Of a DNA stretch of 64,000 bases, positions 494 to 56,526 are shown one piece after another. The stretch lies in assembly GCA_024277375.1 (NCBI GenBank), contig JAJRVD010000027.1:19063-83062 (forward strand), in the 5' to 3' direction. Each line of letters starts with the position of its first letter. Position 1 is the first letter of the stretch. A program made the position numbers and the translations under genes. The notes beneath the pieces were generated by a model. That model searched no databases. It worked only from the letters and a program-made list of their open reading frames with translations, and had not been told where the DNA came from. This DNA comes from Candidatus Omnitrophota bacterium. Lineage in GTDB: Bacteria > Omnitrophota > Gorgyraeia > Tantalellales > Tantalellaceae.

Positions 494-3400
494 ATGGATA
501 TGAAAGAACCCAGATCTAAAATAATAATCAAAGTTATATCTCTTTCGGTGAGTATTCTCATGCTCTGGCAGGGCCTAGTGTGGGCGAATCCTGAAATCTT
601 CTCAAAAAGTAAAACTACTTTGCAACCGCTTACTTTGCGTGCTCGTGGTGATTATAGTATTTGGTTCGTAAAATCCCTCTTGGTTTCCCTCGAGAAAACC
701 GAAAAAAATATCACTAATCAAAATTTCTCTCAGGTAGCCAATATTGTCAAATCTGAAATACGTGCGATGCTTGCGATAAAAACCGGCGAGGCGGAAACGC
801 ATGATTTCCATTCTAAGCTTTTTGCGCTATTTAGCGATATTGAGACACAGGAAAAGCATAGGTTTTACCGTAAGTTTTTTCTCATTGATATGGGAGTGTT
901 TTGCATAAGATATTATTTTTCGGAAGATGTCCGAGATCCAGGAGATCAATATCAGGTTATTTCTGATGAAAAAATAGGTCGGTATCTTTATAAACAGCTT
1001 TTGCTGAAAAGAGAATTTTCTGACGATGGTATTATCAAGAAAGAAGCTGCATACAGGCTTTATGAAGCGCTTGTAACCCATCCAAAAGAAGAACCGGTTC
1101 CTAAAAAAGAACAAGATACCATATTCTTTGATGGGGAAATGGTAAAAGCAATGGATACTGATCGATATTTAATCGAAGATGCGACTGTCTCTGATGCAGA
1201 AGTAATATCTGAAATGTATAGAAATAGTATAAATCTTGAAGATATGAGTCCTTCACGTTTGATTAAGATAATCAGCCAGGGGAAGATTGGTGAAAACCAG
1301 AATACTTATTTAAAAGTGTGTCGTGATCGTCAAAGCGGGAAAGTTGCCGGTTATATTTTTGCCATTGATGGGGAAAATGGACAGGGAAATGTCTACATAA
1401 AGCATTTAGTGATTTCAACATGGTACAGACGGCAGTACGTCGCCCAGACACTTCTTATGGATATGTGTAGGACGATGCAAACGAAAAGCTATGAGAGTTG
1501 TACTATACTCCCGATTTATCCCGCTGTTACGGATATAACTAAGTTCTTGGGGTTTAAATGGGATCGCAATATAGCGATGTTCAGGAAAACTTTTGAGGAA
1601 AATTCTTGGGATGGATGTATTGCCAGGGGAGATTCGGATGAGTTGTTTAAGCGGTTCGAGGATATGTTTAAGGTCAAAGGAACCATTAAACCTTTGAGGG
1701 ATTCCTTCCGGGATGGATTGTCAGAGGCAATTGATGAGATCAAGGCTAGACTTGAAAAAATGGAAGAGAGTATTCCCAGGAGGGACAATCAGTGGAGAGG
1801 GTCTATAAAAATAGCTAATGATGAGATCGAGAAGATCTTGAAAAACATAAGATCAGATCGGGTTGTAGAATTCAGGGGAATAGTGTTACCGTCCGACTAC
1901 TTAAATATAAAGCCGAAAGAATGGCTCCTAGGATTTAATACAATTGGACTTGATCTTGATGAAAAATACGAGCAAAAAGGAATGAGGGCTTTAAGGCAGA
2001 GGATAAACAAGTTAGTGCCTGGGGCGATCGGTCTTTCATCGCAGGTACTTGATATTATGGAGTCGCGTCCGGCTGGTAGTGTTGTTCAGGAGTTTCTTTT
2101 TCACGAAATTATTTGCCCAAGAATTGGACACCGATTGTCGAGAGTGTTCCAGGAGGAATTGTTTCCTGAAAACTACCAAAGGTTATGGACATCAGGAAAA
2201 GGCGGATACAAAGACGGAATCTTGGGGCATATGTTGAAAGAGGTTATAATCGATGAAAACAAGAAAACTAAAAAGAGAGATAGAGACAGAAAACAAAAGA
2301 GAGTAAAACGAGCTAAAAAAAAGTTATCCAAAGTTGAAGCAGGCGAAAAAAAACCAGTGCGGGAGAAGCCGGGGAACGGCATAGTATTGCGCAAAAAAAC
2401 GTCTCCGGCGAGGATAAAGTGGATAAAGAATAAGTTCTTTCCAAACGCAAAGGATGATCAATATGCCATCGGAGGGGCTCCTCTGTTTGAAGAAGCCATA
2501 TTTTATTATAGTTTCGCCGTTTCAGGGATCCACATGGCGAATCTCACAAATGTGTATTTCGCGGCGTTTTTGGTGGCTCTTAGAATTTTGTTTTATTTTT
2601 TGCATACGGATAAAGATAATAAAAAAACGGAACGCACTTGGTTTGAAAAATGTGGTATTCCATTTATCATGACGATAATAGGTGTGCTGGTTGTATTGGT
2701 GCCTTTTATTTATCCTGTTACCGCCGGTGCGGAAGCAACTTTTATTAAAAGTGCTACGGGAATGCTGATTTTTACGCATAGCCTTCTAAATTGTTTTGCT
2801 GTTAACGCGGGTTGGTCTCCGGCGAATGTATTGAATTTTTTTGGGCCGAAGATACCTGCGACTTCGAAAGATGTTTTAAGGTTTATGGAAAGGATTTTCG
2901 GAAAGTTTAAATTGAAAGGGAAGAATTTTTTAGAAATAGGATTTGTTGATAGAGAAGACTATGTTTCTGACCTGAGAGACGCGGGTGTTAATGTTACCAG
3001 GATAGAATCTGCGTCTTTGAGTGCGCACCTTTTTAAATTTAAAAAATATTCTTTTCAGACTGTATTTATGCATCAGATGCCGGGGGAGATGGCCGATGAG
3101 GTTAAAGTTGTGAAAACCTTTCGTGGTGTAGCGCGTATTATGGATATCCAGGGCCGTTTAGTGATTTTTGATGAAGAAATAAAAAAACACACAAGAAAAT
3201 CTATTGAGAAAGTCTTGTCTCAAGCCGGATTGCGGATAGAGTCTATGAGTAAATATCCGGGAGTATTAGTTGTTTGTAAGGATACTATGTTGGAATATCG
3301 AATGTGGAAGCTTTTGGAAAAGTGGTTGGATCTTCTGGAGAACGATGGATATGATATTGAAGAGGTATCCGATACCCTGCTTGAGCGCGAATATGGCCAT

Positions 3401-4876
3401 GCAATTACACATTATCTCCTGGGTAAAGTCCTCAATATCGTTCGAGATAAGGGTATGACACCATTTGCTGAAAAAATAATAGAATTTATACTTGTTGTTA
3501 ATAAATCCGTAAATGTTTCAGGGATGAGATTGTTTTTTAAATTTCTCAATTCCGCTAAGCCCGCCAAGGTCGAAATCGCTTCTTTCATCATAAAAGGAAT
3601 GGGGATGAAGGCTGTAAGCCACTTAGTGTCCGAAGGTTCAGGGAAGAAGAGTGAATATAAAAGAGATCTCTATTTGGGTTTGTTGGCTCATGTCGTCGCG
3701 GAGAATTTAAATGTAACGCGGTTGGCTGCATATTACAAAAAAGTTAAGCACCCTCGTAAAAAGAAGTTTTTTGTCGAGGCGATGGTAGCTGCCGGAGAGA
3801 AGCTTGTGAAAAAGATAAAGCACAAGAGAAAGGTCGCAAGTGAAATAATCATAACGACAGAAAGTTATAATGAAAAAATATATATGGAAGAATTCATGGG
3901 ATATTCAGGGGAACTATTGAATGATATCGCTGCGGAAAGAGATAGAGCCGCAAAGGTGCTAAAGCCGGGTGTGATACTAAAGCTTCAAAAATGGTTTGCG
4001 CCGCACATGTCACCGGAAAAGTACGCGGTTAAGAGGGCTCCGTGGATTGAGGAGGGTATATTCTTTATGTTGCCGGCCCTAGCCGCGGAAGGTATAAATT
4101 ATTGGGTCCGATGGGGAGGTTGGGGAACACTTGTTCTTATATCCCTTTCGAGGATATTATTATTTTTTCTGCACGAAGGTGCACGCGGTAACGCTCCACC
4201 GAAAGAGTATATTGTTCCATTGATCGTTGCTGCTTTAGGTTTTGTGTATGCAATGCTTGTCCCACAGGTTGCTCTCTCCGGTGTTTTAAACATGTTTTTT
4301 ATCCTGACCCTTTTTTTTGCGATCGGATATACGCACTATAGTCTCAATAAATTCGCCCTCCATACAGGTATCCCCCCGGCGAGTATTGCTAAAAGTAACA
4401 GTAGACACAAAACTTCCTATCTTGTGTTATGTTTAGAGGATGTTGTCAAGGGGAGCAAAGGCAAAGAGAGGCAAGTATTAAGTATTAACGGGGCAGTGTC
4501 AGAAGAAGATATATATTCATTGCTTCAGAAAGGAATTTTTGTGACAAATGTGAAATTAAGCCAAATAGATGACCCTGATTCGGAGCTATTGAGAAATGGT
4601 TATTTTGATGTTACGGTTATAAAGGATTTTGGTGAGGCAAACAATAGGAGGGGCGAAGTATGGAAATATATTTTCCAAAGTCTCAAGCCTTCGGGGTTGG
4701 TAGTTGTTACAGATAAGCAGATCTTTGATGAAAGCGTTGCTGATGAGACATTAGATCTATCAGCTCTTGTTGCTAAGTTGTATAATTCGTCGTCAAAAGT
4801 TTGGCTTATCAAGAAGAAGCGAAGTTTTTCAAGCAGAGAAATACGGAATATTGATGAGGAGTTGTATCGCTTGTAG
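494..4876 (+). CDS. Giant (1460 aa) secreted/polytopic membrane multi-domain protein of unknown function
   Basis: A 4.4-kb uninterrupted ORF with an AGGAG-like RBS before the ATG and an N-terminal signal/TM segment. A GNAT acetyltransferase-like core is visible (GYIFAIDGENGQGNVYIKHLVISTWYRRQYVAQTLLMD, about nt 1180-1560). A K/R-rich linker follows (KKTKKRDRDRKQKRVKRAKKKLSK, about nt 2264-2444). There are several TM helices. Two degenerate SAM-methyltransferase-like segments occur (FLEIGFVDRED...GRLVIFDEE near nt 2900-3280, and GYFDVTVIKDFGE...LKPSGLVVV near nt 4480-4760). Confidence 0.75.
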   Translation: MDMKEPRSKIIIKVISLSVSILMLWQGLVWANPEIFSKSKTTLQPLTLRARGDYSIWFVKSLLVSLEKTEKNITNQNFSQVANIVKSEIRAMLAIKTGEAETHDFHSKLFALFSDIETQEKHRFYRKFFLIDMGVFCIRYYFSEDVRDPGDQYQVISDEKIGRYLYKQLLLKREFSDDGIIKKEAAYRLYEALVTHPKEEPVPKKEQDTIFFDGEMVKAMDTDRYLIEDATVSDAEVISEMYRNSINLEDMSPSRLIKIISQGKIGENQNTYLKVCRDRQSGKVAGYIFAIDGENGQGNVYIKHLVISTWYRRQYVAQTLLMDMCRTMQTKSYESCTILPIYPAVTDITKFLGFKWDRNIAMFRKTFEENSWDGCIARGDSDELFKRFEDMFKVKGTIKPLRDSFRDGLSEAIDEIKARLEKMEESIPRRDNQWRGSIKIANDEIEKILKNIRSDRVVEFRGIVLPSDYLNIKPKEWLLGFNTIGLDLDEKYEQKGMRALRQRINKLVPGAIGLSSQVLDIMESRPAGSVVQEFLFHEIICPRIGHRLSRVFQEELFPENYQRLWTSGKGGYKDGILGHMLKEVIIDENKKTKKRDRDRKQKRVKRAKKKLSKVEAGEKKPVREKPGNGIVLRKKTSPARIKWIKNKFFPNAKDDQYAIGGAPLFEEAIFYYSFAVSGIHMANLTNVYFAAFLVALRILFYFLHTDKDNKKTERTWFEKCGIPFIMTIIGVLVVLVPFIYPVTAGAEATFIKSATGMLIFTHSLLNCFAVNAGWSPANVLNFFGPKIPATSKDVLRFMERIFGKFKLKGKNFLEIGFVDREDYVSDLRDAGVNVTRIESASLSAHLFKFKKYSFQTVFMHQMPGEMADEVKVVKTFRGVARIMDIQGRLVIFDEEIKKHTRKSIEKVLSQAGLRIESMSKYPGVLVVCKDTMLEYRMWKLLEKWLDLLENDGYDIEEVSDTLLEREYGHAITHYLLGKVLNIVRDKGMTPFAEKIIEFILVVNKSVNVSGMRLFFKFLNSAKPAKVEIASFIIKGMGMKAVSHLVSEGSGKKSEYKRDLYLGLLAHVVAENLNVTRLAAYYKKVKHPRKKKFFVEAMVAAGEKLVKKIKHKRKVASEIIITTESYNEKIYMEEFMGYSGELLNDIAAERDRAAKVLKPGVILKLQKWFAPHMSPEKYAVKRAPWIEEGIFFMLPALAAEGINYWVRWGGWGTLVLISLSRILLFFLHEGARGNAPPKEYIVPLIVAALGFVYAMLVPQVALSGVLNMFFILTLFFAIGYTHYSLNKFALHTGIPPASIAKSNSRHKTSYLVLCLEDVVKGSKGKERQVLSINGAVSEEDIYSLLQKGIFVTNVKLSQIDDPDSELLRNGYFDVTVIKDFGEANNRRGEVWKYIFQSLKPSGLVVVTDKQIFDESVADETLDLSALVAKLYNSSSKVWLIKKKRSFSSREIRNIDEELYRL

Positions 4877-4921
4877 AACGGATTAATAAATAAAGAACAA
4901 GCGTGCGACCGTTTTAAAGAT

Positions 4922-5728
4922 ATGGACAATAATTCTGCTGTAACATTTCATTTGATCAAAAGAGTAAAAAAAATATATGCCAAAAAAAATCATGTCATGG
5001 CGGGAATGATTGGAGATATTATTTATGAGCTAAATCATCGATCCGCTTCGGATGGAATATCGTTAATACCATACTTGTTCGATACTGGAGACCCTGTGGC
5101 AACGTTTGTGGGTAGGAAAATTTTGAGAAAAATAGGGAAAAACAGTTTTCATGCACTTATAAACTACGGAGTTAGTGATGGTAGTGGCACTGGAGGCGAG
5201 GTGTGCGGTGAGATTCTTACGGAGCTGATAAGGGAAAATATGGGGATAGGATACGTAGTTGCTATTTACAAGAAGTATTCCGAAAGCGACAAAAGTAGCG
5301 ATTTGGTCAAAAGAATGTTCATTGTCAAAGCGGTATCAGATTCGGGGCAGCAAGGACAGATGCAAGTAAGAAATTTCAAAAAACGAATGAAGGACAAAAT
5401 AAAAAAAGCGCCTTCGAAGATCGGAAAAAGTTCATTGAGAGCGGAACGAGAAGTTGTCAGTATGTTGCTAAGGGATGTAGAGAACTATAGTGCGAGCCAT
5501 AGTTCTCAAAACCGCTTAAGAGACAAGGATTTATCCAAAGAACCCGATGAAAAGATCGCGAAAACGAAAGCGGATAGCATGATGAGTATGTTGATCTCTT
5601 CTGTGAAGCTTAATCGGGGAGTTAAGGTATTGGTGTTTGATCTTGGCGCCGGCAATGGCGAGATGAAAAATACAGTAATGAGTATTGTAGAAACGGATAT
5701 AGCGCGGGTAAAAGAAAATGATATATAG
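4922..5728 (+). CDS. Hypothetical protein (268 aa), co-oriented with and tightly following the giant ORF
   Basis: The ORF follows the upstream giant ORF after a 45-nt gap. No recognisable motif. Its stop (TAG) directly abuts the next ATG. Confidence 0.45.
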   Translation: MDNNSAVTFHLIKRVKKIYAKKNHVMAGMIGDIIYELNHRSASDGISLIPYLFDTGDPVATFVGRKILRKIGKNSFHALINYGVSDGSGTGGEVCGEILTELIRENMGIGYVVAIYKKYSESDKSSDLVKRMFIVKAVSDSGQQGQMQVRNFKKRMKDKIKKAPSKIGKSSLRAEREVVSMLLRDVENYSASHSSQNRLRDKDLSKEPDEKIAKTKADSMMSMLISSVKLNRGVKVLVFDLGAGNGEMKNTVMSIVETDIARVKENDI

Positions 5729-6607
5729 ATGGGGGAAGCTTTAGGAAATATGGATATAATTGTAGGCGTTGGTAAAAGTCTTGCGAAGAAGGCAATGAAG
5801 ATCTCAACTTTAAATGGAGGGAATATAAGTCCTGAAGCTATGGAGATCATTGCCGGCGAACAAAACAGAAGACATTACATTCATTTTATAAACAAAGCTG
5901 CGGTAACTTTTGTAGATAAGGATGAACTTCTCCGAGACGCTAAGGGCAAATACGAATTTGACGAGAAAAGAGCAAAAAGATTAGCAGACAATGTTGTGGG
6001 GGCATTAATTGTCGCTGCTGAAAATAAGGAAAAGCCATTGGAAGCGTTGATATTTGATCTGGAGCTTGGCAAAGGAAAGATGAGAAAGATCATAAGGGGG
6101 ATGGTTGAAGATGGCATAGTGAAGATAAAAAAGAACAATAAGGAGTTAGGTATATTTTTAGAAGGCGTCGAAATATTTTTTGGAGAGGGGGAAGTTTTTG
6201 CCAAAAGGATGGTAAACATTACGACCTTGGGCAAAGGCGTAAGAGATCCTGAGGGTCTTATAGTTATTTCTAATGACAAAAACAAAGAATATTATGCGGA
6301 GCTTATCAACAAAGCGACAATGACATTTGTTAACGATAGCGATCTTGCCGAGGATGATTTTGTGTGCCTGCCGGCTATTTTACTGTGTACTTTGGGTAAA
6401 TATCTAAATTGGCCGGTTGAAGATCTGATTAAGCATTACAAGAATATTCCAAATGCCAAAAAATATAGCGATGATTTTTATAAGAAATTATTTTCACCTA
6501 AGAATAAGACGTTATTGATTAAGCTTATACCAGGCGCGGCAAAAATAGATTTTAACAAGTCTGATGATCTAGTAGATGCTTGGGTAAGGATATTAAAGAG
6601 CGCGTAG
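5729..6607 (+). CDS. Hypothetical protein (292 aa) with an internal duplicated motif
   Basis: The ATG immediately follows the TAG of the upstream ORF, which suggests an operon. An internal repeat is present: HYIHFINKAAVTFVDKDEL (about nt 5873-5930) and EYYAELINKATMTFVNDSDL (about nt 6290-6350). No known domain is recognised. Confidence 0.45.
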   Translation: MGEALGNMDIIVGVGKSLAKKAMKISTLNGGNISPEAMEIIAGEQNRRHYIHFINKAAVTFVDKDELLRDAKGKYEFDEKRAKRLADNVVGALIVAAENKEKPLEALIFDLELGKGKMRKIIRGMVEDGIVKIKKNNKELGIFLEGVEIFFGEGEVFAKRMVNITTLGKGVRDPEGLIVISNDKNKEYYAELINKATMTFVNDSDLAEDDFVCLPAILLCTLGKYLNWPVEDLIKHYKNIPNAKKYSDDFYKKLFSPKNKTLLIKLIPGAAKIDFNKSDDLVDAWVRILKSA

Positions 6608-6622: not shown

Positions 6623-8035
6623 TTATTTAGATAGGCTGTCTATGAGCGCGCGCGCCTTTACGAGAGTTTCTTCATATTCCAGCTCGGGGTCACTGTCGGC
6701 GACAATACCGCCACCCGCGGCGAAATATACTTCGGTCCCTTTTACTACCATTGTGCGGATAGCGATATTAAGGTCCATAGTATCATGGAAACTTATGTAG
6801 CCTATAGAGCCTGTGTAGATGCCCCTTTGTGTAGGTTCCAACTCATCCAGTATTTCCATAGCTCTTATTTTAGGGCAACCTGTTATTGACCCTCCGGGAA
6901 AAGCGGCTTTTATTACCTCCACCAGGCTTGAAGTTTTATTTTGCTCTCCTTGTATAACGGATATTGCCTGAAATACGGTAGGATATGTTTCGATCCTTCT
7001 GGATTCGACAACTCTGATCGATCCTGGTACGCAGACCCGGCCGAGATCGTTCCTCTCGAGGTCCGTTATCATGGATAGTTCCGCTGTATCTTTAGTGCTC
7101 GTGTCTAATTCAAGCTTAAGAGCTTTGTCTTCCTGGGGATTGCCTCCACGTCGGCGAGTTCCTTTCATGGGACGTGTCTCGATAGTGTTTTGGCGTTTTC
7201 TCAAAAAGAGTTCGGGGCTTGAGGAAATGATCTTAGAGTCTATAAAATTCAGATACGCGCTGAAGGGTGAGGGGTTTAATTTGTTTAGTTTTAAGTATAA
7301 ATCATATGGATCATGTGGCCATGTGGTTTTAAAGCGTTGAGAAAGACATGCCTGGTAGATGTCACCCGCGCGAATATGTTCGATAACGCTTTTTATGGCG
7401 TTGGTGTAGGATTTCTTGGTAAAATTTAATTCGATAGATCCTGATACTGATATTGGGGTCAGGTCTCCACATTTGACATTGTGAGGTCTTGTCGGAAGTG
7501 TCAAATGTGGAGACCTGACCCCAATATGCGCGACAGTGATCCGGCCAGGCTCTTGCCTGTCATAGATAAGGATCGTTCGGTAAAAAACAAAGTAGATATC
7601 GGGGAGGTCCAAGTCATCTTGCGCTTTTTGCGGCAGTATTTCCAGACGATCTTTAAGGTCATAGGACAGGTAGCCTATGCCTCCGGCGGTGAAAGGCAAG
7701 TTGGTCGTATTATTGGTTTTATAGTGTGTGAGTATGGACTCCAGGCATTTAAAAGGATCTTCCTGAATGCTGAAACTGTCCCTTTCAGTTCGAATGGTCA
7801 AGTTTGTGCCTTTGCCCTTAAAAGTGAGGAAGGGGTGCGTTCCGATAAAGGAATACCTGCCCGCATCTGTTTCAAGGGAGCTGTTCAGGAAAGAAGTGTC
7901 ATCTTGATCGGAGAAGTGAGAATAGAGATCCTCTATCGAACAGTTAATGGGGATTTGTTCGACAGTTGGGGTAGAGTTTATTTTTGGGAGATTTGATAAT
8001 AGTTCGCGGCCGGAGGCCGCTCCTGCGTTATTCAT
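6623..8035 (-). CDS. pabB: Aminodeoxychorismate synthase component I (PabB; chorismate-binding enzyme, TrpE/PabB family)
   Basis: C-terminal chorismate-utilising signatures are present: PGGSITGCPKIRAMEILDELEP, RGIYTGSIGY and AGGGIVADSDPELEYEETLVKA. These are near-identical in pattern to E. coli PabB. The 470-aa length fits. The first roughly 12 codons are encoded by a REP-B repeat, so the true start is uncertain. Confidence 0.8.
   Translation of the reverse strand: MNNAGAASGRELLSNLPKINSTPTVEQIPINCSIEDLYSHFSDQDDTSFLNSSLETDAGRYSFIGTHPFLTFKGKGTNLTIRTERDSFSIQEDPFKCLESILTHYKTNNTTNLPFTAGGIGYLSYDLKDRLEILPQKAQDDLDLPDIYFVFYRTILIYDRQEPGRITVAHIGVRSPHLTLPTRPHNVKCGDLTPISVSGSIELNFTKKSYTNAIKSVIEHIRAGDIYQACLSQRFKTTWPHDPYDLYLKLNKLNPSPFSAYLNFIDSKIISSSPELFLRKRQNTIETRPMKGTRRRGGNPQEDKALKLELDTSTKDTAELSMITDLERNDLGRVCVPGSIRVVESRRIETYPTVFQAISVIQGEQNKTSSLVEVIKAAFPGGSITGCPKIRAMEILDELEPTQRGIYTGSIGYISFHDTMDLNIAIRTMVVKGTEVYFAAGGGIVADSDPELEYEETLVKARALIDSLSK
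8002..8027 (-). repeat. REP family B copy (gttcgcggccggaggccgctcctgcg)
   Basis: A near-exact match to the REPs flanking the RAYT at 55965-55991 and 56501-56526. It contains the GCGGCC-GGAG-GCCGC hairpin. It overlaps the pabB start and the ispH stop. Confidence 0.7.
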
Positions 8036-12410: not shown

Positions 12411-14861
12411 GTGAGAAAAACTGAAAAAGAAAAGATTATAGAAGACCTTAAAAGTGATTTTTTGCGTAATCGCAAATACTCGCTTGCCAAAGATGTTTAT
12501 ACCTCCACTGATTACGATAATTTTAAGTCATTGGCTATGACGATACGTGATCGCCTGATCGAGAGATGGATACTGACCCAACAGAGGTATCATGACGAGA
12601 ACAGTAAAAGAGTATATTATCTTTCCCTGGAGTTTCTTCCCGGTCGATTTTTATCTAACAATATGATCAATTTGGATATTCTCGAAGAATGCAAGAGCGC
12701 CGTTAGTGAAATTGGATTAAATCTGGAAGACTTATGCGAACAGGAAGTAGACCCCGGGCTTGGCAATGGCGGGCTTGGCAGGCTAGCGGCTTGTTTTCTC
12801 GACTCGATGGCTACGCTTGGTATCCCAGCGACAGGTTACGGGATCCGGTATGATTATGGAATATTTAAACAAAAAATTGAAAAAGGATTTCAGGTAGAAG
12901 TTCCGGAAGAATGGCTTCGCCTGGGCAACCCATGGGAATTTGAAATGCCGGAGGTGACGCTTAAGATCCGTCTTTACGGTAAAACCATTAAACGTACGGA
13001 CAAAAATGGTAAGTTATGTGTGGATTGGGTGGATACCAGTGACATATTGGCAATGCCTTATGATACCCCGATCGCCGGATACAGGAACGGTGTGGTCAAT
13101 AACCTGAGACTTTGGTCAGCGAGAAGTACTGAAGAATTCGATCTTGATTATTTTCATGATGGAGACTATATAAAAGCATGTGAAGACAAGATAGTTACTG
13201 AAAATATCTCGCGAGTACTCTATCCGAGCGATAATGTGTACAAGGGCCTTGAATTGCGTCTTAAACAGGAATATTTTTTCACCTCCGCGTCAATACAGGA
13301 TATTATTCGTCGTTTCAAGATGCACAATAACGACTTTAGCGCTTTCCCTGAAAAAACAGCGATCCATCTCAATGACACGCATCCGGCTGTAGCGATAATA
13401 GAGTTGATGCGTATTCTTTTGGACGAAGAAGAATTAGATTGGGATATGGCCTGGGGTATTACGACCGGAACATTCGCTTACACCAACCACACGATCCTCC
13501 CCGAGGCCTTAGAGGCCTGGCCGGTATCGCTCTTTGGTAAACTATTGCCCAGGCATCTTGAGTTGATCTATGAAATAAATATGAGGTTTCTTAAGGACGT
13601 AGCCAAACATTTTCCGCACGATCAGGATAGGCTTAAACGTATGTCGTTAATAGAAGAAGGACCAAATAAAAAGTTGAGAATGAGTCACCTATGTATCGTA
13701 GGAAGTCATTCGGTGAATGGAGTTTCAAAGCTTCATACGGAATTATTGAAGACGACTCTTTTTAAAGATTTTTACGAGTTTTGTCCGGAGAAGTTCAATT
13801 CGAAGACGAACGGTATTACACAAAGACGGTGGCTTAAAAAAGCAAATTCTTCTTTAGCTCAGTTAATAACCACCAAGATCGGTGATGAGTGGACCGGAGA
13901 TCTTACACAATTAAAAAAATTAATTCCATTGTCATCCGATCGGCTTTTTAAGAAAAAATGGAGTCAGATCAAAAGGGATAACAAAATAAAGTTTGCCGAG
14001 TACGTAAAGAACGGAACGGGTGTTATTATCGATCCTGATTCTATTTTTGATGTGCAGGTAAAAAGAGTGCATGAATACAAAAGACAAGTTCTTTTCGCGT
14101 TCTATCTGATAGCGCGCTATCTCAGGATAAAACATAATCCAAAAAAAAACGTAGTTCCAAGAACGGCTATTTTTGCCGGGAAGGCCGCCCCGGGATACGC
14201 GAGAGCGAAGCTGATAATAAAATTCATCAATAATATCGCGGATGTTATTAATAAAGATCCGGAGATAAATGATAAGTTGAAAGTTGTTTTTCTGGAAAAC
14301 TATTCTGTGTCCATGGCAGAGAGGATATTTCCGGCAAGTGATCTGTCGGAACAGATATCAACCGCCGGGAAAGAAGCCTCGGGTACCGGAAATATGAAGT
14401 TCATGCTTAATGGCGCGCTTACTATAGGGACATGGGACGGCGCGAATATAGAGATCGCCGAGGAAGTTGGCCTCGATAATATTTTTATTTTTGGACTAAA
14501 AGCGGATAAGATCGCTCAGATCAAGGCAACAGGGTATAATCCGCATGAGTACGTCAAGAAAAACCCGCTTCTGAATGAGTCTCTTTCTCTTATTAAGGAA
14601 GACTTTTTCTCGCAGTTTGAACCCGGGATATTTAAACCTTTGTGCGATTCACTTATCTGGCATGACGAATACATGATCTTTGCCGACTTTGAGGATTATG
14701 TCGCGACACAAGATAAAGTTTCAAAGGCATATCGTGATCAGGAAAAATGGACAGAAAGATCTATAATGAACACCGCTAATTCCGGAAGGTTCTCCAGTGA
14801 CAGGACAGTTGCTGAGTATGCCGAAGACATCTGGGGAGTGGATCATAACGGAAAAAAATGA
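12411..14861 (+). CDS. glgP: Glycogen/alpha-glucan phosphorylase
   Basis: The pyridoxal-phosphate site EASGTGNMKFMLNGALTIGTWDGANIE is present. At 816 aa the length fits. The overall GT35 pattern is present (LGNGGLGRLAACFLDS). GTG start. Confidence 0.9.
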   Translation: MRKTEKEKIIEDLKSDFLRNRKYSLAKDVYTSTDYDNFKSLAMTIRDRLIERWILTQQRYHDENSKRVYYLSLEFLPGRFLSNNMINLDILEECKSAVSEIGLNLEDLCEQEVDPGLGNGGLGRLAACFLDSMATLGIPATGYGIRYDYGIFKQKIEKGFQVEVPEEWLRLGNPWEFEMPEVTLKIRLYGKTIKRTDKNGKLCVDWVDTSDILAMPYDTPIAGYRNGVVNNLRLWSARSTEEFDLDYFHDGDYIKACEDKIVTENISRVLYPSDNVYKGLELRLKQEYFFTSASIQDIIRRFKMHNNDFSAFPEKTAIHLNDTHPAVAIIELMRILLDEEELDWDMAWGITTGTFAYTNHTILPEALEAWPVSLFGKLLPRHLELIYEINMRFLKDVAKHFPHDQDRLKRMSLIEEGPNKKLRMSHLCIVGSHSVNGVSKLHTELLKTTLFKDFYEFCPEKFNSKTNGITQRRWLKKANSSLAQLITTKIGDEWTGDLTQLKKLIPLSSDRLFKKKWSQIKRDNKIKFAEYVKNGTGVIIDPDSIFDVQVKRVHEYKRQVLFAFYLIARYLRIKHNPKKNVVPRTAIFAGKAAPGYARAKLIIKFINNIADVINKDPEINDKLKVVFLENYSVSMAERIFPASDLSEQISTAGKEASGTGNMKFMLNGALTIGTWDGANIEIAEEVGLDNIFIFGLKADKIAQIKATGYNPHEYVKKNPLLNESLSLIKEDFFSQFEPGIFKPLCDSLIWHDEYMIFADFEDYVATQDKVSKAYRDQEKWTERSIMNTANSGRFSSDRTVAEYAEDIWGVDHNGKK

Positions 14862-16879
14862 AGAAATATTTGTTGCACGACGATAATGGTAAACTAGAGA
14901 CCCATATAGATTTCAAAGGGAGTCTTAACGATCAGCAGTATGAAGTTGTAACCGCCGCGGAAGGCCCATGTCTTGTTCTCGCCGGCGCGGGAAGCGGTAA
15001 GACCCGAACTCTCATATATCGCCTGGCATATCTTTTGGAACGTGGAATCCCCCCGGGTAATATTTTGCTTATGACCTTTACTAATAAGGCAGCGAGAGAG
15101 ATGCGCGAGCGCACTGAAATGCTTTTAAAGTACAGGCCCAAAGGGTTATGGAGCGGGACATTCCATCATGTGGGGAATAGATCTTTACGCGCGTACGCTC
15201 CCGAAGTTGGTTACGAACGAGACTTTGGTATACTTGACCAGCATGATTCCCGTGAGATTATTAAGTCATGTGTAAAAAAAATGCGTATTAGTCCGGGAAA
15301 AGAAAAGTTTCCTAAGCCGTCGGTGATACAGGCAGTAATAAGTCTCGCGACAAATACCCAAAGAATCACTAAAGAAGTCTTGGAGGATAGATTCCCGTAT
15401 CTATTGAAATTCGCGCCACAGATAAGCGCGATAAAAGATCTCTATGAAAAAAAGAAAGTTTCATCGGGGAACATGGATTATGACGATCTTCTTTCAAAAT
15501 GGAAATGGCTTCTGGAGAACGTAACTGAGGTAAGAAAAAGATATTCTGAGCAGTTTCGGTACATAATGGTAGATGAATATCAGGATACGAACTTTCTTCA
15601 AGCGGACATAATAAATATCCTTAGCGGTCACCACTGTAATTTATTGGCGGTAGGAGATGACGCCCAATCTATTTATTCATTTCGCGGTGCCCGAGTAGAG
15701 AATATACTACAGTTCCCAAAAAAGTTTAAGAGCGCCAAGGTCTTTAAACTGGAGATCAACTATCGTTCAACTCCCGAAATACTGGACTTGGCGAATGATT
15801 CTCTTTTAAATAATGAGAACCAGTTTGAAAAACAGCTTAAAGCGGTAAACCCGTCTATAGATAAGCCCGCGCTGGTCGAAGTAAGAGATCCTTATGCTCA
15901 GGCGAAATTCATCGCGCAGAGGGTAAAAGAAATGCGTGAAGAGGGTATTGAGATGAAAGATATCGCTGTTCTTTTCAGGGCGCATTATCAGTCAGCCGAG
16001 CTTGAAATGGAGCTTGTTAAGAGAGGAATGCCATATATTGTCCGAGGAGGAATACGCTTTTTTGAACAGGCTCATATCAAGGATGTATTGGCTTATTTGA
16101 AAATAGTCATTAATCCTATTGATGAAGTAGCCTGGATCCGGGCTCTTGTTCTGTGTCCTGGTATCGGACCGGGATATGCGGAGAAGATATATTCCGCTTT
16201 TTGCGGATCGGGCACTGATATTGCAAGATTTCTGAAAAGTGGTTTCGTGAATAATTTGCCCAAAAAAGCGCAGGATGGATACGGGCGATTTCAGAAGATA
16301 ATGCGCGCTATAATTTCTGAAGATGTCAACGGTGATACCGGGAGCATGATAGCAGCCGTATTGGACGCGGGGTATGAAACGCATCTTCAGGTAGCTTTCG
16401 AGAACGCGAAAGACCGCGTAGACGATATACATGAACTGATAAATTTTTCTCATGAATATGAGACATGCGCGGATTTTTTAAGTGATATAACGCTCAGGGA
16501 AGGATTTAGGGGAGAGATTGTTCAGGACGGGCAAGACGAAGAATAACAGCTTGTGCTTTCAACCATACATCAGGCAAAAGGTTTAGAGTGGAAGGCTGTT
16601 TTTGTGATAGGTCTTTGTGAAGGGCAGTTCCCGCATCCCAAGGCTTATGCGGAATCGGCGGAGATGGAAGAAGAGAGGCGTCTTTTTTATGTAGCGGCAA
16701 CCAGAGCGGAAGAATTTTTATACCTTATTCATCCCCGTACGCGTTATGACTATCAGCAGGGGACGGTAATAGCTCGCCAGAGCAGATTTCTTGAAGAATT
16801 GGATCCGGATGATTATGAGGTGTGGGAAGTGGGGTCGAATTCGTTCCCAAGCAACGAAGAAAGGACCATTGAGCTGTAA
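14858..16879 (+). CDS. uvrD: UvrD/PcrA-type ATP-dependent DNA helicase, interrupted by one in-frame TAA (16544-16546); possible pseudogene or readthrough
   Basis: Walker A LAGAGSGKTRTLIYRLAYLL and motif II MVDEYQDTN are present. The C-terminal piece (16553-16879) carries motif VI, LSTIHQAKGLEWKAVFVIGL...RRLFYVAATRAEEFLYL. Both parts are in the same frame and are separated only by TAA, CAG, CTT. The track splits the gene into 562-aa and 108-aa ORFs. Confidence 0.8.
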
Positions 16880-18597: not shown

Positions 18598-18693
18598 TAC
18601 GGATGATTTTTTTTGCTCGGTTATTTCAAACATTTTAAAAGCATATGAGGTGCAGGCGATGAAACTGTCATTGAGAAGAGGAGCTAAGAGCAA

Positions 18694-18733
18694 GGGGGAC
18701 AGCCTCTTTTTGGCCAAAAAGAGGCTGTCCCCC
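18694..18733. repeat. Palindromic repeat family A copy (gggggacagcctctttttggccaaaaagaggctgtccccc)
   Basis: A perfect hairpin. It lies inside the first 35 codons of the six-frame ORF 18650, so the real start of the giant gene is probably downstream at 18755. Confidence 0.65.
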
Positions 18734-18754
18734 TTGCTACGTTGTTCGCTCGTG

Positions 18755-21700
18755 ATGACGGGGAAGGGTATTGCCTCGCTGGTCACTTTGATAGCTTTTG
18801 TATTAAATATTTTAGGCGCGGAAGTTATTAGTATAAAAGCATATGCCGCTATTTCCCCTGAAATAGCTTCTACCAATCCCGCTGAGTATAATTTTCTGAA
18901 TGTCGATTCTTTTACATTACCCAAATACCTTGGAACCATAAAAGATTTGTGGAAGTCTGCCTCCGGACGAGACACGGTTATTCATATCCAGGACGCTCAT
19001 TGTAACTATGCCGCGCAGGATACGATAGCTAAGATGATAGAACGTATCGATTCGGAGTACGATATAGACGTGATAAATCTTGAAGGCGGCGCGGAGGATT
19101 ATGACCTGTCTTTGTTTACCGATATTGAGGATAAGGGCGTAAGACAAAAAGTAGTCGACTATTTTATGAAGCTTGGCATGGTCTCCGGTGCCGAAAGCTT
19201 TGTTCTTAATAATCAGGATAAAGCAAAGTTATGGGGCGTCGAAGACGTGGATCTTTATTTTGACAACCTTAGCGCCTACCGGAATTCGCTGGAGTACAAG
19301 GAAGAAGTTGACGGGTATCTTAAAATGCTCAGCCGTTTGCTGAATGAACTTAAAATAAACGTTTATTCGAACGAACTTTTGGAGTTTGATCTTAAATATT
19401 CCGCTTACAAGGCGGGTAATCTGGCTTTCAGAGATTATGTGATCTATATTCGTGATAAGGCCGCGAAATGTGCTATCGACATGGAGGAGTTTGAGAATAT
19501 TGCGTTATTGTCTGAGTCTCTTGAACTTGAGGGCAAAATTGATTTCAAAAAGGCCAATCGCGAGAGGGATATGCTCATAGAAGAGCTCCGGCGCATGGTC
19601 TCGAAAAACGAGCTTGAAAACCTGGTGCTCAAGACCTTACAGTTCAAGAAAAAGATAATTTCCCGGAAAGACTATTATACGTATCTTTTTGAAAAAGCGC
19701 GGCTTGTGAACATCGGCTTGGATGGGTTCGGCGAACTCAGGAAATACACTGACTATATCTCAAAGTATCAGACCGTTGATAGATCAAAGATATTAGAAGA
19801 AATGTCTATTATTGAGGATGCGATCAAGGATGTTCTATGCGTAAAAGATAAAGATCGTACGCTTGTCAGGTTGTCCAAGAATTTCGCGCTCCTAAAGAAC
19901 ATATTCAACGTCTCGCTCACAAAAGACGACTATGTGTATTACAAAACCAACGAACCCGCGTTCGCGGTGAAAAACTATATTTCATTCATTAAGGCTAACG
20001 ACTCATCATTGCGTGGAGCTGTGCCTTTCTCGCCGTTGCGAGGAGCCGACCTATCCTCTGTCATTGCGAGCCCGCCGAAGGCGGGAGAAGCAATCTCTGA
20101 AAACATCTATAATCTCGACCGCCACCGCGAACAAATATCCCGTTTTTACGAAGATGGCATCAAGCGTGACGATGCATTCTTGCGCAACCTCAGGTTTCAA
20201 CGTAAGCAGGGAGTAGGAAGCAGGGAGCAGGGTGTCGTAGGAGAGGCCTCTAGCCGTGAACAAAAAACGACAATTTTAGTTACCGGCGGATTTCACACCA
20301 AAAATTTATGCGAGCTGTTTAAAGAGAAAGGTATCTCCTACGTTTCTATCATGCCTAACTTCCGGAATGAGAATGGTTATGAAAGCCCGTATTTTAACCT
20401 TCTCGCTGGTAAGAAAAATGATGTAGCCGCGGCGCTTACAAGTGATATATCTTCGTTGGCGTTATATTCTGATTTATTGCAGAACGGTCTAAACAATGGA
20501 GATTTTACCTCGAATGTTAAAGCGGTTAGAAGGTTGTGGGTAAGTCTGGTTGCCGCTCAGATCAGGAAAAACGGGAGAAATGTCATATTCGGAGATATTA
20601 ATGGTCGTTATAGACGCTATTCATTCAACTCCGAAGATGGTGATCCTGTAGCGGGACTTACAATAAACGGAAAACAGGTATACGCAAGGAATTTTGGTGG
20701 GGAAAGATCCCTTCAGGCTGAAGCGAAGGCATTATATGAGGAAATTTCCAGAGATATTGTATCCTTTGCCGCGGAAAGAGAGGAGATAAAGTCCGCGGTT
20801 GTCAGGTTAAGAGAGATCTTTAGTACTTTTCCCGACGTTGTTATCTCTGAAGTGAGAAATTTCTGGGAAAATGAAAAAGAAAGCACCGGAAATGTTTTCA
20901 GAGCTGTCGAGTTCTTTGATCTGATGCCCGAGATAATGCTTAATGCGAAAGTAGAGCGGTTGAAAGAAGCGGCGTTGAGTTTTGTCGACCGTCAACTGGA
21001 ACATATTTTTGACAGAGAAAACGCGGTGGCCATATATAACGAGATAATATCTACCGACGAAGGTATTCCTCAAGACCTGCTCAAATACGCTTTGTACTAC
21101 AGGAATCTAAAGGAGGGTAAAACTCTTACGGATGAGCAGTTGGCCCTGCATGGCCTCAGCAGCAAAGAGGACTTCCCATATTCCCTCGAGGTCGATCGTG
21201 TCTTAAAACACAAGGATGATAGTAATCCTAAAAAACTTTTGCTTATTTATAATGCTGAACATACCAGTATGGTAGGGATGGGAGACCAGATATCAAATGT
21301 GGTTCCCCTGGTTCAGGCACTTAAGGATAAATATCCCAAGTTGGACATAACCATATATACGGATAAACCCTTTGTGTATGAGGCTCATGACAATGTCCGT
21401 GTATTTAGCATGTCTTCTCCCGGAATAAATGCCGAAGAGGTTTTTGATATGGCGATCGATTATTCGGACAGTAAGAGTCGAGAGGAATATCCGGATAAAT
21501 ATTTAGTTCAAGAAGCGCAGATCTCTATTGTAGGGGATTTCAATAATTTAACAGTTAAGGCTAAGGGGTTACCGCCTTTGGGCATAAAAGTTCGTAATCG
21601 AAGTAATGCATATTCATTAAGCTTACGGTTATGTGCCGAATTGAGACTTCCTGTCAGGATAGGAACAGAACAACCTCAGACAAGTTCGATAGTTCTTGGC

Positions 21701-34949: not shown

Positions 34950-36290
34950 ATGGAAGCTCACACCGATACTATTACCTATCTCAATTCTTTGATCAATTAT
35001 GAGAAGAGCGGGTTTGGCCCGGATTGTAAACATTTTGATCTGGATAAATTGCGCGTGGTTCTTGAAAAATCAGGGAATCCCCATCATGATTACAGGTGTG
35101 TGCATGTTGCCGGGACAAAAGGCAAGGGGTCCATATGTGAATTTGCCTCAGGTATTTTGCAAGCATCTGGCTATAGGGTGGGTCTATTTACTTCACCTCA
35201 TCTTAGTTCTCCGAACGAAAGAATAAAGATAAACGGAAATATGATACGCGATGATGACATTGCCGGCGTGGTCAGTTGTCTGAGGGAACATCTGGGGCAC
35301 GCGGAAGGTGAGTTCACTTTTTTCGAGGTATATACGCTGCTTGCCTTGTTATATTTCAGCAAAGAAAAAGTAGATCATGCTATTTTTGAAGTGGGTCTTG
35401 GGGGACGGTTAGACGCTACCAATGTGATATTTCCGGACGTGTGCGCCATTAGTCCTGTAAGTTACGATCATATGGAAGTTTTGGGCTCTAAGATCGATGA
35501 GATAGCTATTGAGAAAGCGGCGATAATAAAAAAAGGCACACATTGTGTAAGTGCCGAGCAGATCCCATCGGTTTTGAATGTTATAGATAAAAGATGCCGG
35601 GAGGTCGGGGCATCTTTGTCTGTTGTCGGCAAGGATATAACGTATAAGCCTACCAGTTTATCCGAGGTCGGAAGCTGTTTTGACGTAATAAGCAGGGACA
35701 CGGCGCGCCGTGCCCCTGCCATAAAAAGATACGAGGGATGCAAGGCGAATATGCCCGGTGAGTTCCAAGTTTCTAATGCCGCCACGGCTGTAGGTATATG
35801 TGAAAAACTTCTCGGCGCAGAAAAAACGGATATGGAGGCGTTTAAGCGCGGTATCCAGAACGCGTTTCTCCCCGGGAGATTGGAGACCTTGTGTCGGTGT
35901 CCTGCAATTGTTATTGATGGCGCCCAAAATGGTGCCAGCGCGGAACATCTGAAATATTCTGTTGAACAAATCTTCAAATATGATAAATTAATACTCCTCC
36001 TGGGGATCTCGGACGATAAATACGTAAAAAGTGTATGTCGCGAGCTTGTGCCTATAGCGGATGAAATAATACTTACTCGTTAGTCTAGCAGTCGAGCTAC
36101 GGATCCACACTTGATAAGAGGCCATATAAGAGGTAAGCGAGTTAATGTAACTAAAAACACGATCGAAGCTCTGGGGTTGGCGCTTAAGACCGCCGGAGAA
36201 AATGATATGATCCTGGCGACGGGGTCGTTTTTTTTGATTGGAGAAGTTAGGGGATTAGTATTAGCACAACAAATTCAAACGACACAATAG
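34950..36290 (+). CDS. folC: Folylpolyglutamate synthase/dihydrofolate synthase FolC with a single in-frame TAG at 36081-36083
   Basis: The Mur-ligase P-loop VHVAGTKGKGS is present. The same frame continues past the TAG for 68 codons. These encode the conserved FolC C-terminus ...[34 protein letters not shown], consistent with the VLVCGSFHTVAHV end of E. coli FolC. The track ORF stops at 36083. Confidence 0.8.
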
Positions 36291-39760: not shown

Positions 39761-39835
39761 ACGTAGGAGCCGCCTCTGGCGGCGAATTGTAAATAATGTT
39801 CGCGGAATATCACCGAAGGTGATACCGCTCCCACG
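39761..39835. repeat. Inverted doublet of REP family B variants (acgtaggagccgcctctggcggcgaa ... ccgaaggtgataccgctcccacg)
   Basis: Same architecture as 32522-32609. It lies between the L,D-transpeptidase and accA. Confidence 0.6.
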
Positions 39836-44012: not shown

Positions 44013-44528
44013 ATGATAAAAAAAATTATCATATGTGTTGCCTTCCTCTTAAGCCTGACTTATCTTACGTACGCCTCTAGCGATACGATCGTAATACTTT
44101 CTTTTGCCGGTGATGTGAAAATCATACCTTCCGGCGGAACAGATCCTGTTTTTTGTAATCCCGGTATGATATTGAAAGAAGGGACGCGTATTATTACGGG
44201 AGAAGAATCCTATCTTGAAATGGCTTTTGATAGATCCAGCCGAAACATCGTAATAGTAAAAGAGAACAGCGAAGTCGTCATTAGGCTGGACGGGATAGAC
44301 AAGATCAGTCTTATAGACGGTAAAATGTATACGCTTCTGCGGGAGCTTAAGAAAGGCGCGACTTTCAGGGTCCGGACACCAAGTGCCATATGCGGTGCTC
44401 GTGGTACCGGATGGAGCGTGTCGGCGGATGAAAACGTAACAGAGATCATATCTTTTGACGGCAGGGTTTTTGTTCGGGGCATAAACAGTGACGGGTCGGG
44501 AGCGGAAGAAGAGGTCTGGATCGAGTAA
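44013..44528 (+). CDS. Secreted FecR-domain protein (171 aa)
   Basis: A signal peptide is followed by the FecR-domain pattern GDVKIIPSGG...LKEGTRIITGEESYLEMAFDRSSRNIVIVKENSEV...FRVRTPSAICGARGTGWSV. Confidence 0.6.
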   Translation: MIKKIIICVAFLLSLTYLTYASSDTIVILSFAGDVKIIPSGGTDPVFCNPGMILKEGTRIITGEESYLEMAFDRSSRNIVIVKENSEVVIRLDGIDKISLIDGKMYTLLRELKKGATFRVRTPSAICGARGTGWSVSADENVTEIISFDGRVFVRGINSDGSGAEEEVWIE

Positions 44529-44872
44529 GGATATTCCAGGAAGATAAGAAAGTTCGAACGCCCCGGTAAAATGGAGAAGGTATCAGAAGCTAAGCTATCA
44601 GACTTGTTGGCGGAATTCGGGATCAAGAAAAACATACAAGATCATGACAAAATAAAAGCTATCAGTAAAATGCAGCGGATGAGAGAGGAACACACCGAAC
44701 ATTTGCTTGAGAAAAAAGATGAGAGTAGGTTTGATCAGATGCGTGATGATAAAAAAAATGACAGATCCTCGGGCGGCGGTCAGAAACACTAGGGTTAGAT
44801 TGGTCACACTGCCAAGTGGTCAATAAATAGGCTTGTGCAAAATGGAACTTTTGTTATTCAGGGTGTGTCGTA

Positions 44873-44977: not shown

Positions 44978-45030
44978 ATAAAAAACAGCGTTTCGCACAA
45001 GTCTAGTCAATGAATACAAAGGAGGGTGAT

Positions 45031-45930
45031 ATGAAATTTTTTTTAACCTTTACAGTATGCGCGATATTCGCGATCTGTGCCTCTTTCTCAGGGCATGCTT
45101 TGCCGGAGAAAGTAAGTATCATTTCTTATGGAGGGGATGCCAAAGTTGTTTTCGCGGGCCAGACAGACTCTATCGCGTGTAAGCCGGGAATGCTTTTAGA
45201 GGCGGGAGCGCGTCTCATAACCGGCAAGAACTCTTTTATCGAAATAGCTTTTGATGAAAACGCGGACAATATCGTAAAAGTTGAAGAAGAAACAGAGGTT
45301 ATTATCAAATTGTCGGGTATAGACAAGATCGAACTTGTTGATGGTGAGATGTTCACGCTGTTACAGGCTTTGGATGGAAAAGAAACTTTTCAGGTTCGTA
45401 CGCCGTTCGCGACCTGTGGAGCCAGGGGAACCGGGTGGAGGACTAAAACAGATGGCAATACCACTGATGTGGCGGTTATCAGGGACAAAGTTTACATTCG
45501 CGGTATAAATAAAGACGGGTCTGACATGGAAAAGAAATTTTGGGTTAAGGAGGGTTTTGAGAGAAAGGTAAATAAATTTGAGCGTCCCGGAAAAACGCAA
45601 AAAATAGATAAGGTAAGGTTTTCTGGCATGGAAAAAGAGATCAAGGTTCTTCAAAAGACCAAAGACAAAAAAAGAGTCCTGCCTAAGGAACCGATAAGGA
45701 CGCTGGAGAATCCTATTGTGAATAAATTGGACGATACTATCGACAAGATGGATAGGATCGACAGAATAGTGGGCCGTCAGGAGAAAGTAGAGATTAGAGA
45801 AAGGATAGACGACAGAAGAGAAGGCTTCAGAGATATAAAGAGAGATAATGTTTTAGACCGTAAGAGTGACAACAAAGTAGTGAATATACGTTTACGGAAA
45901 CCGAAGCCCGATGGCGGAGGAAATCAATAA
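45031..45930 (+). CDS. Secreted FecR-domain protein paralogue with a K/R/D/E-rich C-terminal extension
   Basis: Signal peptide. Its FecR-like segment (…FQVRTPFATCGARGTGWRT) aligns with the 44013 paralogue over about 150 aa. An AAGGAGGG RBS precedes the ATG at 45031. The C-terminal 120 aa are highly charged. Confidence 0.6.
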   Translation: MKFFLTFTVCAIFAICASFSGHALPEKVSIISYGGDAKVVFAGQTDSIACKPGMLLEAGARLITGKNSFIEIAFDENADNIVKVEEETEVIIKLSGIDKIELVDGEMFTLLQALDGKETFQVRTPFATCGARGTGWRTKTDGNTTDVAVIRDKVYIRGINKDGSDMEKKFWVKEGFERKVNKFERPGKTQKIDKVRFSGMEKEIKVLQKTKDKKRVLPKEPIRTLENPIVNKLDDTIDKMDRIDRIVGRQEKVEIRERIDDRREGFRDIKRDNVLDRKSDNKVVNIRLRKPKPDGGGNQ

Positions 45931-55965: not shown

Positions 55966-56526
55966 CGTAGGAGCGGCCTCCGGCCGCGAACATTATGAAA
56001 AAAATTCACAAACAAAATAATTTACGAAAGGCCAGGATATACAATTCGGAATATCCGTACTTTGTAACAATTTGTACCGACAGTGGGCAGGAGTTGTTTG
56101 TGGGGAAAAATATTCCGGAATTATTGATAGAGAGCATTAAATGGTTCGCGGATAATTCATTGATACTGAATCTCGGATTTGTGATTATGCCTGATCACTT
56201 ACATTGGGCGTTTGCTTTAGTAAGGGGAGAAAAATTGGATAATATTATGCGACGATACAAAAATTGTACCGCTCAAAAGAGAAAAGATCTTAAAGATGAT
56301 GACATTCGGATGTGGCAAAAAGGATGTTATGATCACTTATTGAGGAATGTATAGGATTGTGAAGTAAAACTCAAATATATGCATAACAACCCTGTTCGAA
56401 AAGGCCTGGTAGATATCCCAGAGGAATATCTATACTCTACAGCTAATGAGAAATACACGGATATGATAAATTGGGAGTATGTCTGGGGTTTATGAAATAT
56501 GTTCGCGGCCGGAGGCCGCTCCTACG
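55943..56526 (+). mobile_element. REP-RAYT unit: IS200/IS605-like Y1 HUH transposase gene flanked by inverted REP family B copies
   Basis: Left REP at 55965-55991 (acgtaggagcggcctccggccgcgaac), with a partial copy at 55943-55958. Right REP at 56501-56526 (gttcgcggccggaggccgctcctacg) is the exact reverse complement. It is inserted in the 560-bp gap between comEA and comEC. Confidence 0.75.
55995..56495 (+). pseudogene. REP-associated tyrosine transposase (RAYT, IS200-like TnpA) with an in-frame TAG at 56352-56354 between the HUH and catalytic Tyr motifs
   Basis: The HUH motif is VIMPDHLHWAF. The same frame continues after the TAG as DCEVKLKYMHNNPVRKGLVDIPEEYLYST. This is the Y-x3-NPV-K/R-GLV catalytic-Tyr region typical of RAYTs. 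The total would be 166 codons. Confidence 0.7.

Follow-up and report, generated by a model that had tools for sequence, protein, structure and literature searches.

In-frame stop codons unique to one Omnitrophota assembly interrupt otherwise conserved genes in a 64-kb window

Interrupted genes in the window

We analyzed a 64,000-nucleotide stretch of the Candidatus Omnitrophota bacterium assembly GCA_024277375.1 (contig JAJRVD010000027.1, positions 19,063 to 83,062 of the forward strand), referred to here as the window, in which conserved genes are split by single in-frame stop codons. The affected genes encode a UvrD/PcrA-type helicase, the folylpolyglutamate/dihydrofolate synthase FolC, a FecR-domain protein, a REP-associated tyrosine transposase (RAYT), and a large membrane or modular protein; in addition, mnmE lacks its start codon (Table 1). 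Candidates were same-frame coding segments split by a single stop, each of which was then compared with homologues. In total, the ~41 genes of the window hold five well-supported in-frame stops, one probable stop, and one start-codon loss. The six stops comprise four TAG and two TAA codons and no TGA, a density of ~94 stops per Mb, and all of the lesions are point substitutions, with no frameshift in any window gene. The deposited sequence does contain the in-frame stops, which occur in this genome alone, and the genes around them are undamaged.

The initial annotation had proposed that in-frame stops recur in conserved genes of this DNA, naming uvrD, folC, and the RAYT gene. The pattern is real, but it was undercounted: three events were named, against the five to six stops and one lost start found here. 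What had been stated of the three named genes was borne out, in that their stops lie in frame at positions where homologues carry sense residues and none of the cases involves a frameshift. The outcome that had been offered as refuting the pattern, that these were isolated pseudogenes, fails in the opposite direction, as lesions at ~94 stops per Mb are not isolated.

Table 1. Positions of the interrupted genes, their lesions, and the associated palindrome in the window
Feature	Position	Strand	Remarks
Large membrane/modular protein gene	494..6607	+	2037 codons; currently three same-frame ORFs, 494..4876, 4922..5728, and 5729..6607
TAG in large modular gene (probable in-frame stop)	4874..4876	+	Same frame on both sides; homologues have single-protein architecture
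In-frame TAG in large modular gene	5726..5728	+	In the first of two tandem ~140-residue domain copies; ATG directly after
uvrD/pcrA-type helicase gene	14858..16879	+	673 codons including one internal stop; UvrD-helicase, UvrD_C, and UvrD_C_2 (Pfam) over whole length
In-frame TAA, uvrD codon 563	16544..16546	+	Just upstream of helicase motif V (STIHQAKGLEW)
folC (folylpolyglutamate/dihydrofolate synthase)	34950..36290	+	446 codons including one internal stop; Mur_ligase_M and Mur_ligase_C (Pfam)
folC codon 358, TAC (Tyr; D358Y)	36021..36023	+	Asp in 118 of 119 homologues
In-frame TAG, folC codon 378	36081..36083	+	Inside Mur_ligase_C (residues 309-427)
ATT at mnmE start-codon position	36260..36262	+	Met1 of relatives aligns with ATT
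FecR-domain protein gene (paralogue of 45010..45930)	44013..44792	+	259 codons including one internal stop; Pfam FecR
In-frame TAA, FecR-like gene codon 172	44526..44528	+	Absent from the initial annotation
REP-like GC-rich palindrome flanking RAYT gene, 18 nt (GGAGCGGCCTCCGGCCGC)	55970..55987	+	Inverted copy at 56505-56522 (-)
RAYT (IS200-like Y1) gene	55995..56495	+	166 codons including one internal stop; between comEA and comEC
In-frame TAG, RAYT codon 120	56352..56354	+	Column K or R in ten closest homologues, E in more distant ones

The uvrD gene is presently divided between two open reading frames (ORFs), 14858..16546 (562 amino acids, aa) and 16553..16879 (108 aa, opening with GTG), which lie in one frame with only TAA-CAG-CTT between them, as the initial annotation described. 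Pfam domains of the read-through protein extend over the region of the stop at residue 563 (UvrD_C, residues 297-624; UvrD_C_2, residues 566-624), and the protein is 73% identical to intact Omnitrophota helicases of 674-697 aa. All of the best 120 homologues are continuous (120/120, 640-710 aa), and in these the stop column holds E in 102, G in 9, and D in 8; the corresponding codon is GAA or GAG in five of five syntenic relatives. Identity to relatives is 71-75% after the stop and 70-73% before it, and among columns invariant in the five relatives, 1 of 68 has changed after the stop compared with 29 of 339 before. Judged from these alignments, there is no decay of UvrD downstream of the stop, the protein being equally conserved on both sides.

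At the 5' end of uvrD, the start codon overlaps the stop of the glycogen phosphorylase gene (ATGA, 14858-14861). An extra gene of 148-154 aa, without known domain, lies between these two genes in all syntenic relatives and is missing in the window. In the protein collection, the 562-aa UvrD fragment (P0336) was clustered under a 55-aa representative (P0337), and for this reason the window's own UvrD was missing among the homologue matches; such clustering of a truncated protein under a short representative could hide other truncated proteins.

Relatives of FolC are intact at 432-443 aa, and 119 of 119 FolC homologues are continuous. The column of the folC stop is occupied by Ala in 14 of 14 close relatives and by A (76) or S (35) among the 119 homologues. 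The relatives' codons, GCC or GCT, differ from TAG at all three positions, and a different codon must therefore have preceded the stop in this lineage. The same protein carries D358Y; among single-base private changes at conserved columns, no other strongly radical one was found. At this codon relatives read GAT, GAC, or AAT, which implies a G>T change. Changed invariant columns in FolC number 3 of 21 after the stop versus 8 of 144 before. At columns conserved in at least 97% of homologues, FolC shows one private change and UvrD (120 homologues) two conservative ones, in both cases ordinary when set against the homologues themselves.

The loss of the mnmE start was recognized from the alignment of relatives to the open frame 36251-36424, which contains no ATG, GTG, or TTG upstream of the conserved N terminus. 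In tblastn searches, residue 6 of the relatives aligned to position 36275, and the window's ATT AGC ACA (I-S-T) corresponds to ATG AGC ACT (M-S-T) in the syntenic locus L007. The first canonical start, at 36425, would cost 55 conserved residues.

Homology of the FecR-like gene to relatives of 257-284 aa runs ~80 residues past its stop in tblastn alignments, where the window's VWIE*GYSRKIRKFERPGK aligns with WIEKGFERKVKKFESPGE and similar sequences of relatives. The stop column holds E three times and K, R, and A once each, and the codons in the five-relative alignment are AAA, AAG, AGA, GCG, and AAC. Invariant columns have changed in 2 of 10 cases after the stop and in 8 of 54 before.

The large modular gene has at least 15 homologues of 1285-2441 aa, all of them single proteins, whose N terminus corresponds to the start of the first ORF and whose C terminus corresponds to the end of the third. 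The internal repeat can be aligned gap-free over the TAG at 5726, which falls opposite Glu (34% identity over 142 aa, E=2e-25), and the homologue P0375 likewise aligns across the stop. The TAG at 4874 is followed by fifteen codons to the next ATG, without a Shine-Dalgarno-like sequence; it is probably an in-frame stop too, with weaker support from sequence in that no homologue aligned directly over this junction. The protein encoded at 494-6607 (+) consists of an N-terminal region and a C-terminal domain of ~200 residues, the latter duplicated in tandem, and its end parts recur at the ends of metagenome proteins of 1,300 to 7,272 aa (P0348-P0417). Pfam families gave no match in the three ORF products.

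The RAYT protein is 59-61% identical to intact Omnitrophota homologues of 165-166 aa, some of which are annotated RayT, and has a weak Pfam Y1_Tnp match. Its stop column, K/R/E in homologues, is a sense position, and in the motif WQ.GYYDH the window has Cys where the closest homologues have Tyr. The 18-mer palindrome beside the gene has exact copies at 55970 (+), 56505 (-), and 8006 (-); when up to three mismatches are allowed, there are four matches in the window, including 8006-8023 (-) and 39766-39783 (+), versus 0.05 expected. Inverted palindromes on either side of a RAYT gene form the classic REP/RAYT arrangement, which in the window has been inserted between comEA and comEC.

Several other candidate stops proved to be genuine terminators. 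The YkuD protein ends at TAA 39745, as it does in the syntenic locus L005; new genes begin after TAA 40807, TAA 43392, and TAG 44001; and MgtE is complete at TAA 32192. Before TAG 60063 the beta-barrel profile is complete, and the next gene opens with a signal peptide at ~60270.

Comparison with relatives

The best homologues of UvrD, FolC, and RAYT are all Omnitrophota proteins, with 60-73% identity, and the genes from uvrD to the FecR-like genes keep their order in syntenic relatives, some of whose loci were found by a YkuD-based scan of metagenome contigs. Across 18 distinct relatives that share this gene order, neither an internal stop nor a frameshift occurs in any of 317 orthologous gene instances, whereas 3 of the ~24 syntenic genes of the window are interrupted. 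The comparison shows the in-frame stops to belong to this genome or its assembly and not to the lineage.

Apart from the stops, the window resembles its relatives. All 21 syntenic genes align with one high-scoring segment pair each, Pfam coverage of the other window genes is complete, and the rates and spectra of private changes are within the relatives' range. As the interrupted genes are otherwise normal, the lesions would have to be very recent, not real, or tolerated. The G+C content of the window (43.1%) is the lowest of the six syntenic genomes compared, the others having 45.7-52.4%.

Origin of the stop codons

We consider the most likely cause of the lesions, with a probability of about 0.5, to be single-base consensus or base-call errors of the substitution type in the assembly, not indels. 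We infer that sequencing or assembly, and not the cell, introduced the wrong bases; they would stem from a short-read metagenome assembly of low depth or low quality, and the organism's real uvrD, folC, mnmE, FecR-like, and large modular genes would be intact and read with the standard code. Prior expectation strongly favors this explanation: ~3.6% of RefSeq assemblies do not pass a test for internal stops (PMC11017572), whereas sense decoding of UAA or UAG is not known from any bacterial chromosome.

Much of the evidence is consistent with assembly error. The window is an outlier, with five to six stops and a lost start in ~41 genes compared with none in the 317 gene instances of relatives, and its lesions are substitutions without one frameshift. 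Illumina miscalls are likewise substitutions with very few indels, the commonest being G>T, A>C, and A>T (PMC2532726). Where the change can be deduced it is G>T, in uvrD (GAA>TAA), mnmE (ATG>ATT), and folC codon 358 (GAC>TAC), and alignment suggests that the FecR-like and RAYT stops are probably A>T. The equal constraint on UvrD on either side of its stop makes the lesions look very recent or unreal, and the joint loss of folC (in a genome with pabB and folE), uvrD, and mnmE would be unexpected in a free-running lineage. The stop columns hold differing residues, and five relatives agree on the residue at two of the three columns that could be tested, as random hits would give. Long contigs at very low k-mer coverage do occur in public metagenome-assembled genomes (MAGs), for example a 95-kb contig at a coverage of 2.9.

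The closest precedent for assembly error is the set of spurious internal stops from miscalls described by Cooley and Wright in 2024 (PMC11017572), which are similarly substitution-only changes in otherwise intact conserved genes, in assemblies that are outliers relative to their nearest relatives and lack frameshifts, as for low-quality short reads. The window differs from these cases in its density, ~94 per Mb versus ~1 modeled, and in showing no companion excess of radical missense changes; that study also did not include MAGs (PMC11017572).

A number of observations weigh against assembly error. In simulations, coverage of 10x or less produced ~1 spurious pseudogene per Mb (PMC11017572), and the stop density of the window is ~100 times that figure. 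A density of ~94 stops per Mb implies an error rate near 1 per kb, which would be hard to square with a 98-kb contig unless depth were extremely low. We examined missense burden at 1936 columns conserved in at least 90% of at least 10 relatives, with the six stops taken over 19,810 codons. A random process making six stops should yield ~17 missense changes per stop, of which ~10 in all would fall at the 1936 columns and ~5 would be radical. The radical single-base private changes observed were three at these columns and one more in the 287 conserved columns of UvrD, compared with ~6 expected from natural divergence at the relatives' ratio and ~11 with uniform errors added (P=0.006). With rate uncertainty allowed for, the likelihood ratio is ~10 against a uniform process of error or mutation. 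The ratio falls to 2-4 when the spectrum is T-directed or limited to G:C>T:A, which leaves room for a skewed error process. The lack of TGA among the six stops points the same way and is not significant (P=0.25-0.31). No second assembly of the organism was found, exact 56-mer scans of genome and metagenome contigs giving no match and the protein clusters having single members. On balance, the sequence evidence cannot overturn the priors for assembly error, yet it fits simple random error uncomfortably.

One unifying cause, G:C>T:A change through 8-oxoguanine, was considered and not established. It fits uvrD, the mnmE start, and FolC D358Y; however, A>T is the likelier change for the FecR-like and RAYT stops, GCC or GCT would need three changes to become the folC TAG, and private changes show no excess of G:C>T:A (6 of 41 in the window versus 0-19% in relatives).

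The initial annotation listed nonsense mutation, assembly error, and readthrough or suppression as explanations; that list was correct, although it was left unranked and its context-dependent readthrough finds no support here. Real nonsense alleles would mean that ~10% of the genes were recently inactivated by base substitutions and are now young pseudogenes, arising, for instance, from a substitution-only mutator of the MutY/MutM type (oxidative G:C>T:A) or from relaxed selection in a host-dependent Omnitrophota population. We regard this as unlikely. The stops are present in the deposited sequence, and NCBI-derived gene calls give the truncated proteins P0121 (377 aa) and P0336 (562 aa); the C terminus of FolC hints at decay, both in D358Y and in its changed invariant columns; the RAYT protein has lost a Tyr to Cys in a conserved motif; the uvrD, mnmE, and FolC D358Y changes are compatible with G>T; and the G+C content is the lowest of the genomes compared. 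The resemblance is to the young pseudogenes of recently host-restricted bacteria undergoing reduction, where many interrupted genes still look intact. Genomes under reduction carry frameshifts, deletions, and insertion sequences beside nonsense codons, and in natural gene decay frameshifts are at least as frequent as nonsense mutations, whereas the window has six to seven point lesions and no indel in ~41 genes, which would not be expected. Neither radical missense nor G:C>T:A private changes are in excess, the UvrD sequence beyond its stop is free of decay, two of the stops look like A>T rather than G>T, and loss of genes at this density genome-wide, folC, uvrD, and mnmE included, would hardly be viable in a dominant genotype. 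Less probable still, in our view, is that the stops are real but tolerated because UAA and UAG (UAR) are partially decoded, for example by a suppressor tRNA (UUA or CUA anticodon) whose gene lies elsewhere in the genome. Nonsense codons at tolerant positions would then be near-neutral, while frameshifts and radical missense changes would still be selected out. This is the only explanation that directly predicts many UAR stops together with no TGA, no frameshifts, and no extra radical missense of the kind that a random process making six stops predicts, and it would account for genes, including the needed folC and uvrD, that are fully conserved on both sides of their stops. In Escherichia coli, tRNA anticodon mutants of the supE, supF, and supB/supC type behave in this way, a UUA anticodon reading both UAA and UAG while normal termination persists. 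Laboratory amber and ochre suppressor strains, in which nonsense alleles are tolerated with terminator usage unchanged, are the only version of suppression that the window data do not contradict; they differ in that no such tRNA was seen in the window, and we know of no natural lineage in which many nonsense codons have accumulated under a suppressor. Searches of the 64-kb window with ARAGORN and Rfam returned no suppressor tRNA with a UUA or CUA anticodon, its five tRNAs being Leu-CAA, Ala-GGC, Arg-TCT, Leu-TAG, and Pro-TGG. Suppression is further opposed by stop columns that are heterogeneous and never Gln, namely E in uvrD, A/S in folC, E/K/R/A in the FecR-like gene, K/R/E in the RAYT gene, and E in the internal repeat. 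It leaves the mnmE ATT start and FolC D358Y unexplained, and the absence of TGA among the six stops, at P of about 0.25, is not significant.

Wholesale codon reassignment is excluded on terminator usage, because TAA and TAG end 31 of 40 genes (78%) in proportions like those of relatives (TAA 21, TAG 10, and TGA 9 in the window versus 154, 58, and 89), with usage matching orthologues gene by gene. The initial annotation had judged reassignment unlikely from genuine terminators of all three kinds, pabB with TAA, ispH with TGA, and the gene at 5729..6607 with TAG, and these hold. Adaptation to suppression might favor TGA terminators or bring back-up stops closer; neither is seen in comparison with relatives, the median distance to the next in-frame stop being 10 codons in the window versus 11 in relatives. 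A Codetta screen of >250,000 genomes reportedly found bacterial stop reassignments only for TGA. In a 2026 k-mer survey, the bacterial stop reassignments listed as known are also those of TGA only (10.64898/2026.04.02.715157). Known reassigned codes, such as code 15 (TAG to Gln, in crAss-like and other phages) and the reading of TGA as Trp or Gly in Mycoplasmatales and Absconditabacteria/Gracilibacteria, are alike in having in-frame stops at sense positions without frameshifts. The window differs in that two stop codons are involved, both still the main terminators, in that the aligned residues are heterogeneous, in lacking a suppressor tRNA, and in being a bacterial chromosome with housekeeping genes and not a phage. 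Recoding by pyrrolysine or selenocysteine was rejected, as two stop codons (TAA and TAG) are found at variable, noncatalytic columns of unrelated proteins; Rfam gave no match to a SECIS or pyrrolysine-related RNA in the window, and we found nothing relevant in the literature on recoding in Omnitrophota. Programmed, context-dependent readthrough acting as a regulatory device in each gene is very improbable. In every case the downstream frame is open and conserved to the normal C terminus of homologues, but the stops share no common context (preceding codons TTG, ATA, GAA, CGT, GAG, and GTA; +4 bases A, A, C, T, G, and G), and the 90 nt 3' of each stop fold no better than shuffled sequences (z-scores of -0.58 to +1.86). 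The stops lie in five unrelated genes and are absent from the orthologues of all relatives, so they are not a conserved regulatory feature.

Other features and significance

Beyond the interrupted genes, an ORF of 3657 codons with no Pfam match occupies 18650-29623 (+) between the HAD hydrolase gene and era, which are adjacent, without a gene between them, in five of five fully syntenic relatives. The arrangement suggests that a giant gene was inserted specifically in this lineage, and giant genes have been reported for Omnitrophota. A small protein of ~63 aa is encoded beside mgtE at 32324-32515 (+) and is conserved in all relatives (7621-7818 in locus L003 and similar loci), in which it matches the Pfam magnetosome protein family MamI (PF26391). 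At 56479-58092 (+), comEC has only 537 codons, with DUF4131 and Competence domains and no metallo-beta-lactamase domain, and over its final 30 nt it runs into a tRNA-Arg gene of the other strand, 58063-58139 (-). Given this overlap, its 3' end may be truncated or miscalled. GC skew is strongly positive on the + strand throughout 1-64000 (0.06-0.24), and nearly all genes lie on that strand.

If the stops are assembly errors, a public contig would carry about one wrong base per kilobase, which is a practical warning, and the truncated FolC of 377 aa and UvrD of 562 aa that would result are already in sequence databases. Internal-stop density would in that case be a cheap quality flag for a whole MAG.

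If, on the other hand, reads were to confirm the stops, the finding would be important, as dozens to hundreds of in-frame UAA and UAG codons in the conserved genes of a free-living or host-dependent bacterium would point to natural nonsense suppression, which is unreported for bacterial chromosomes in large genetic-code surveys. In this improbable case, the organism would possess a natural ochre/amber (UAA and UAG) suppressor tRNA while keeping the standard terminators, and UAR codons would have drifted into uvrD, folC, the FecR-like gene, and the giant modular gene. If true, this would be the first case of chromosomal sense decoding of UAA and UAG in a bacterium.

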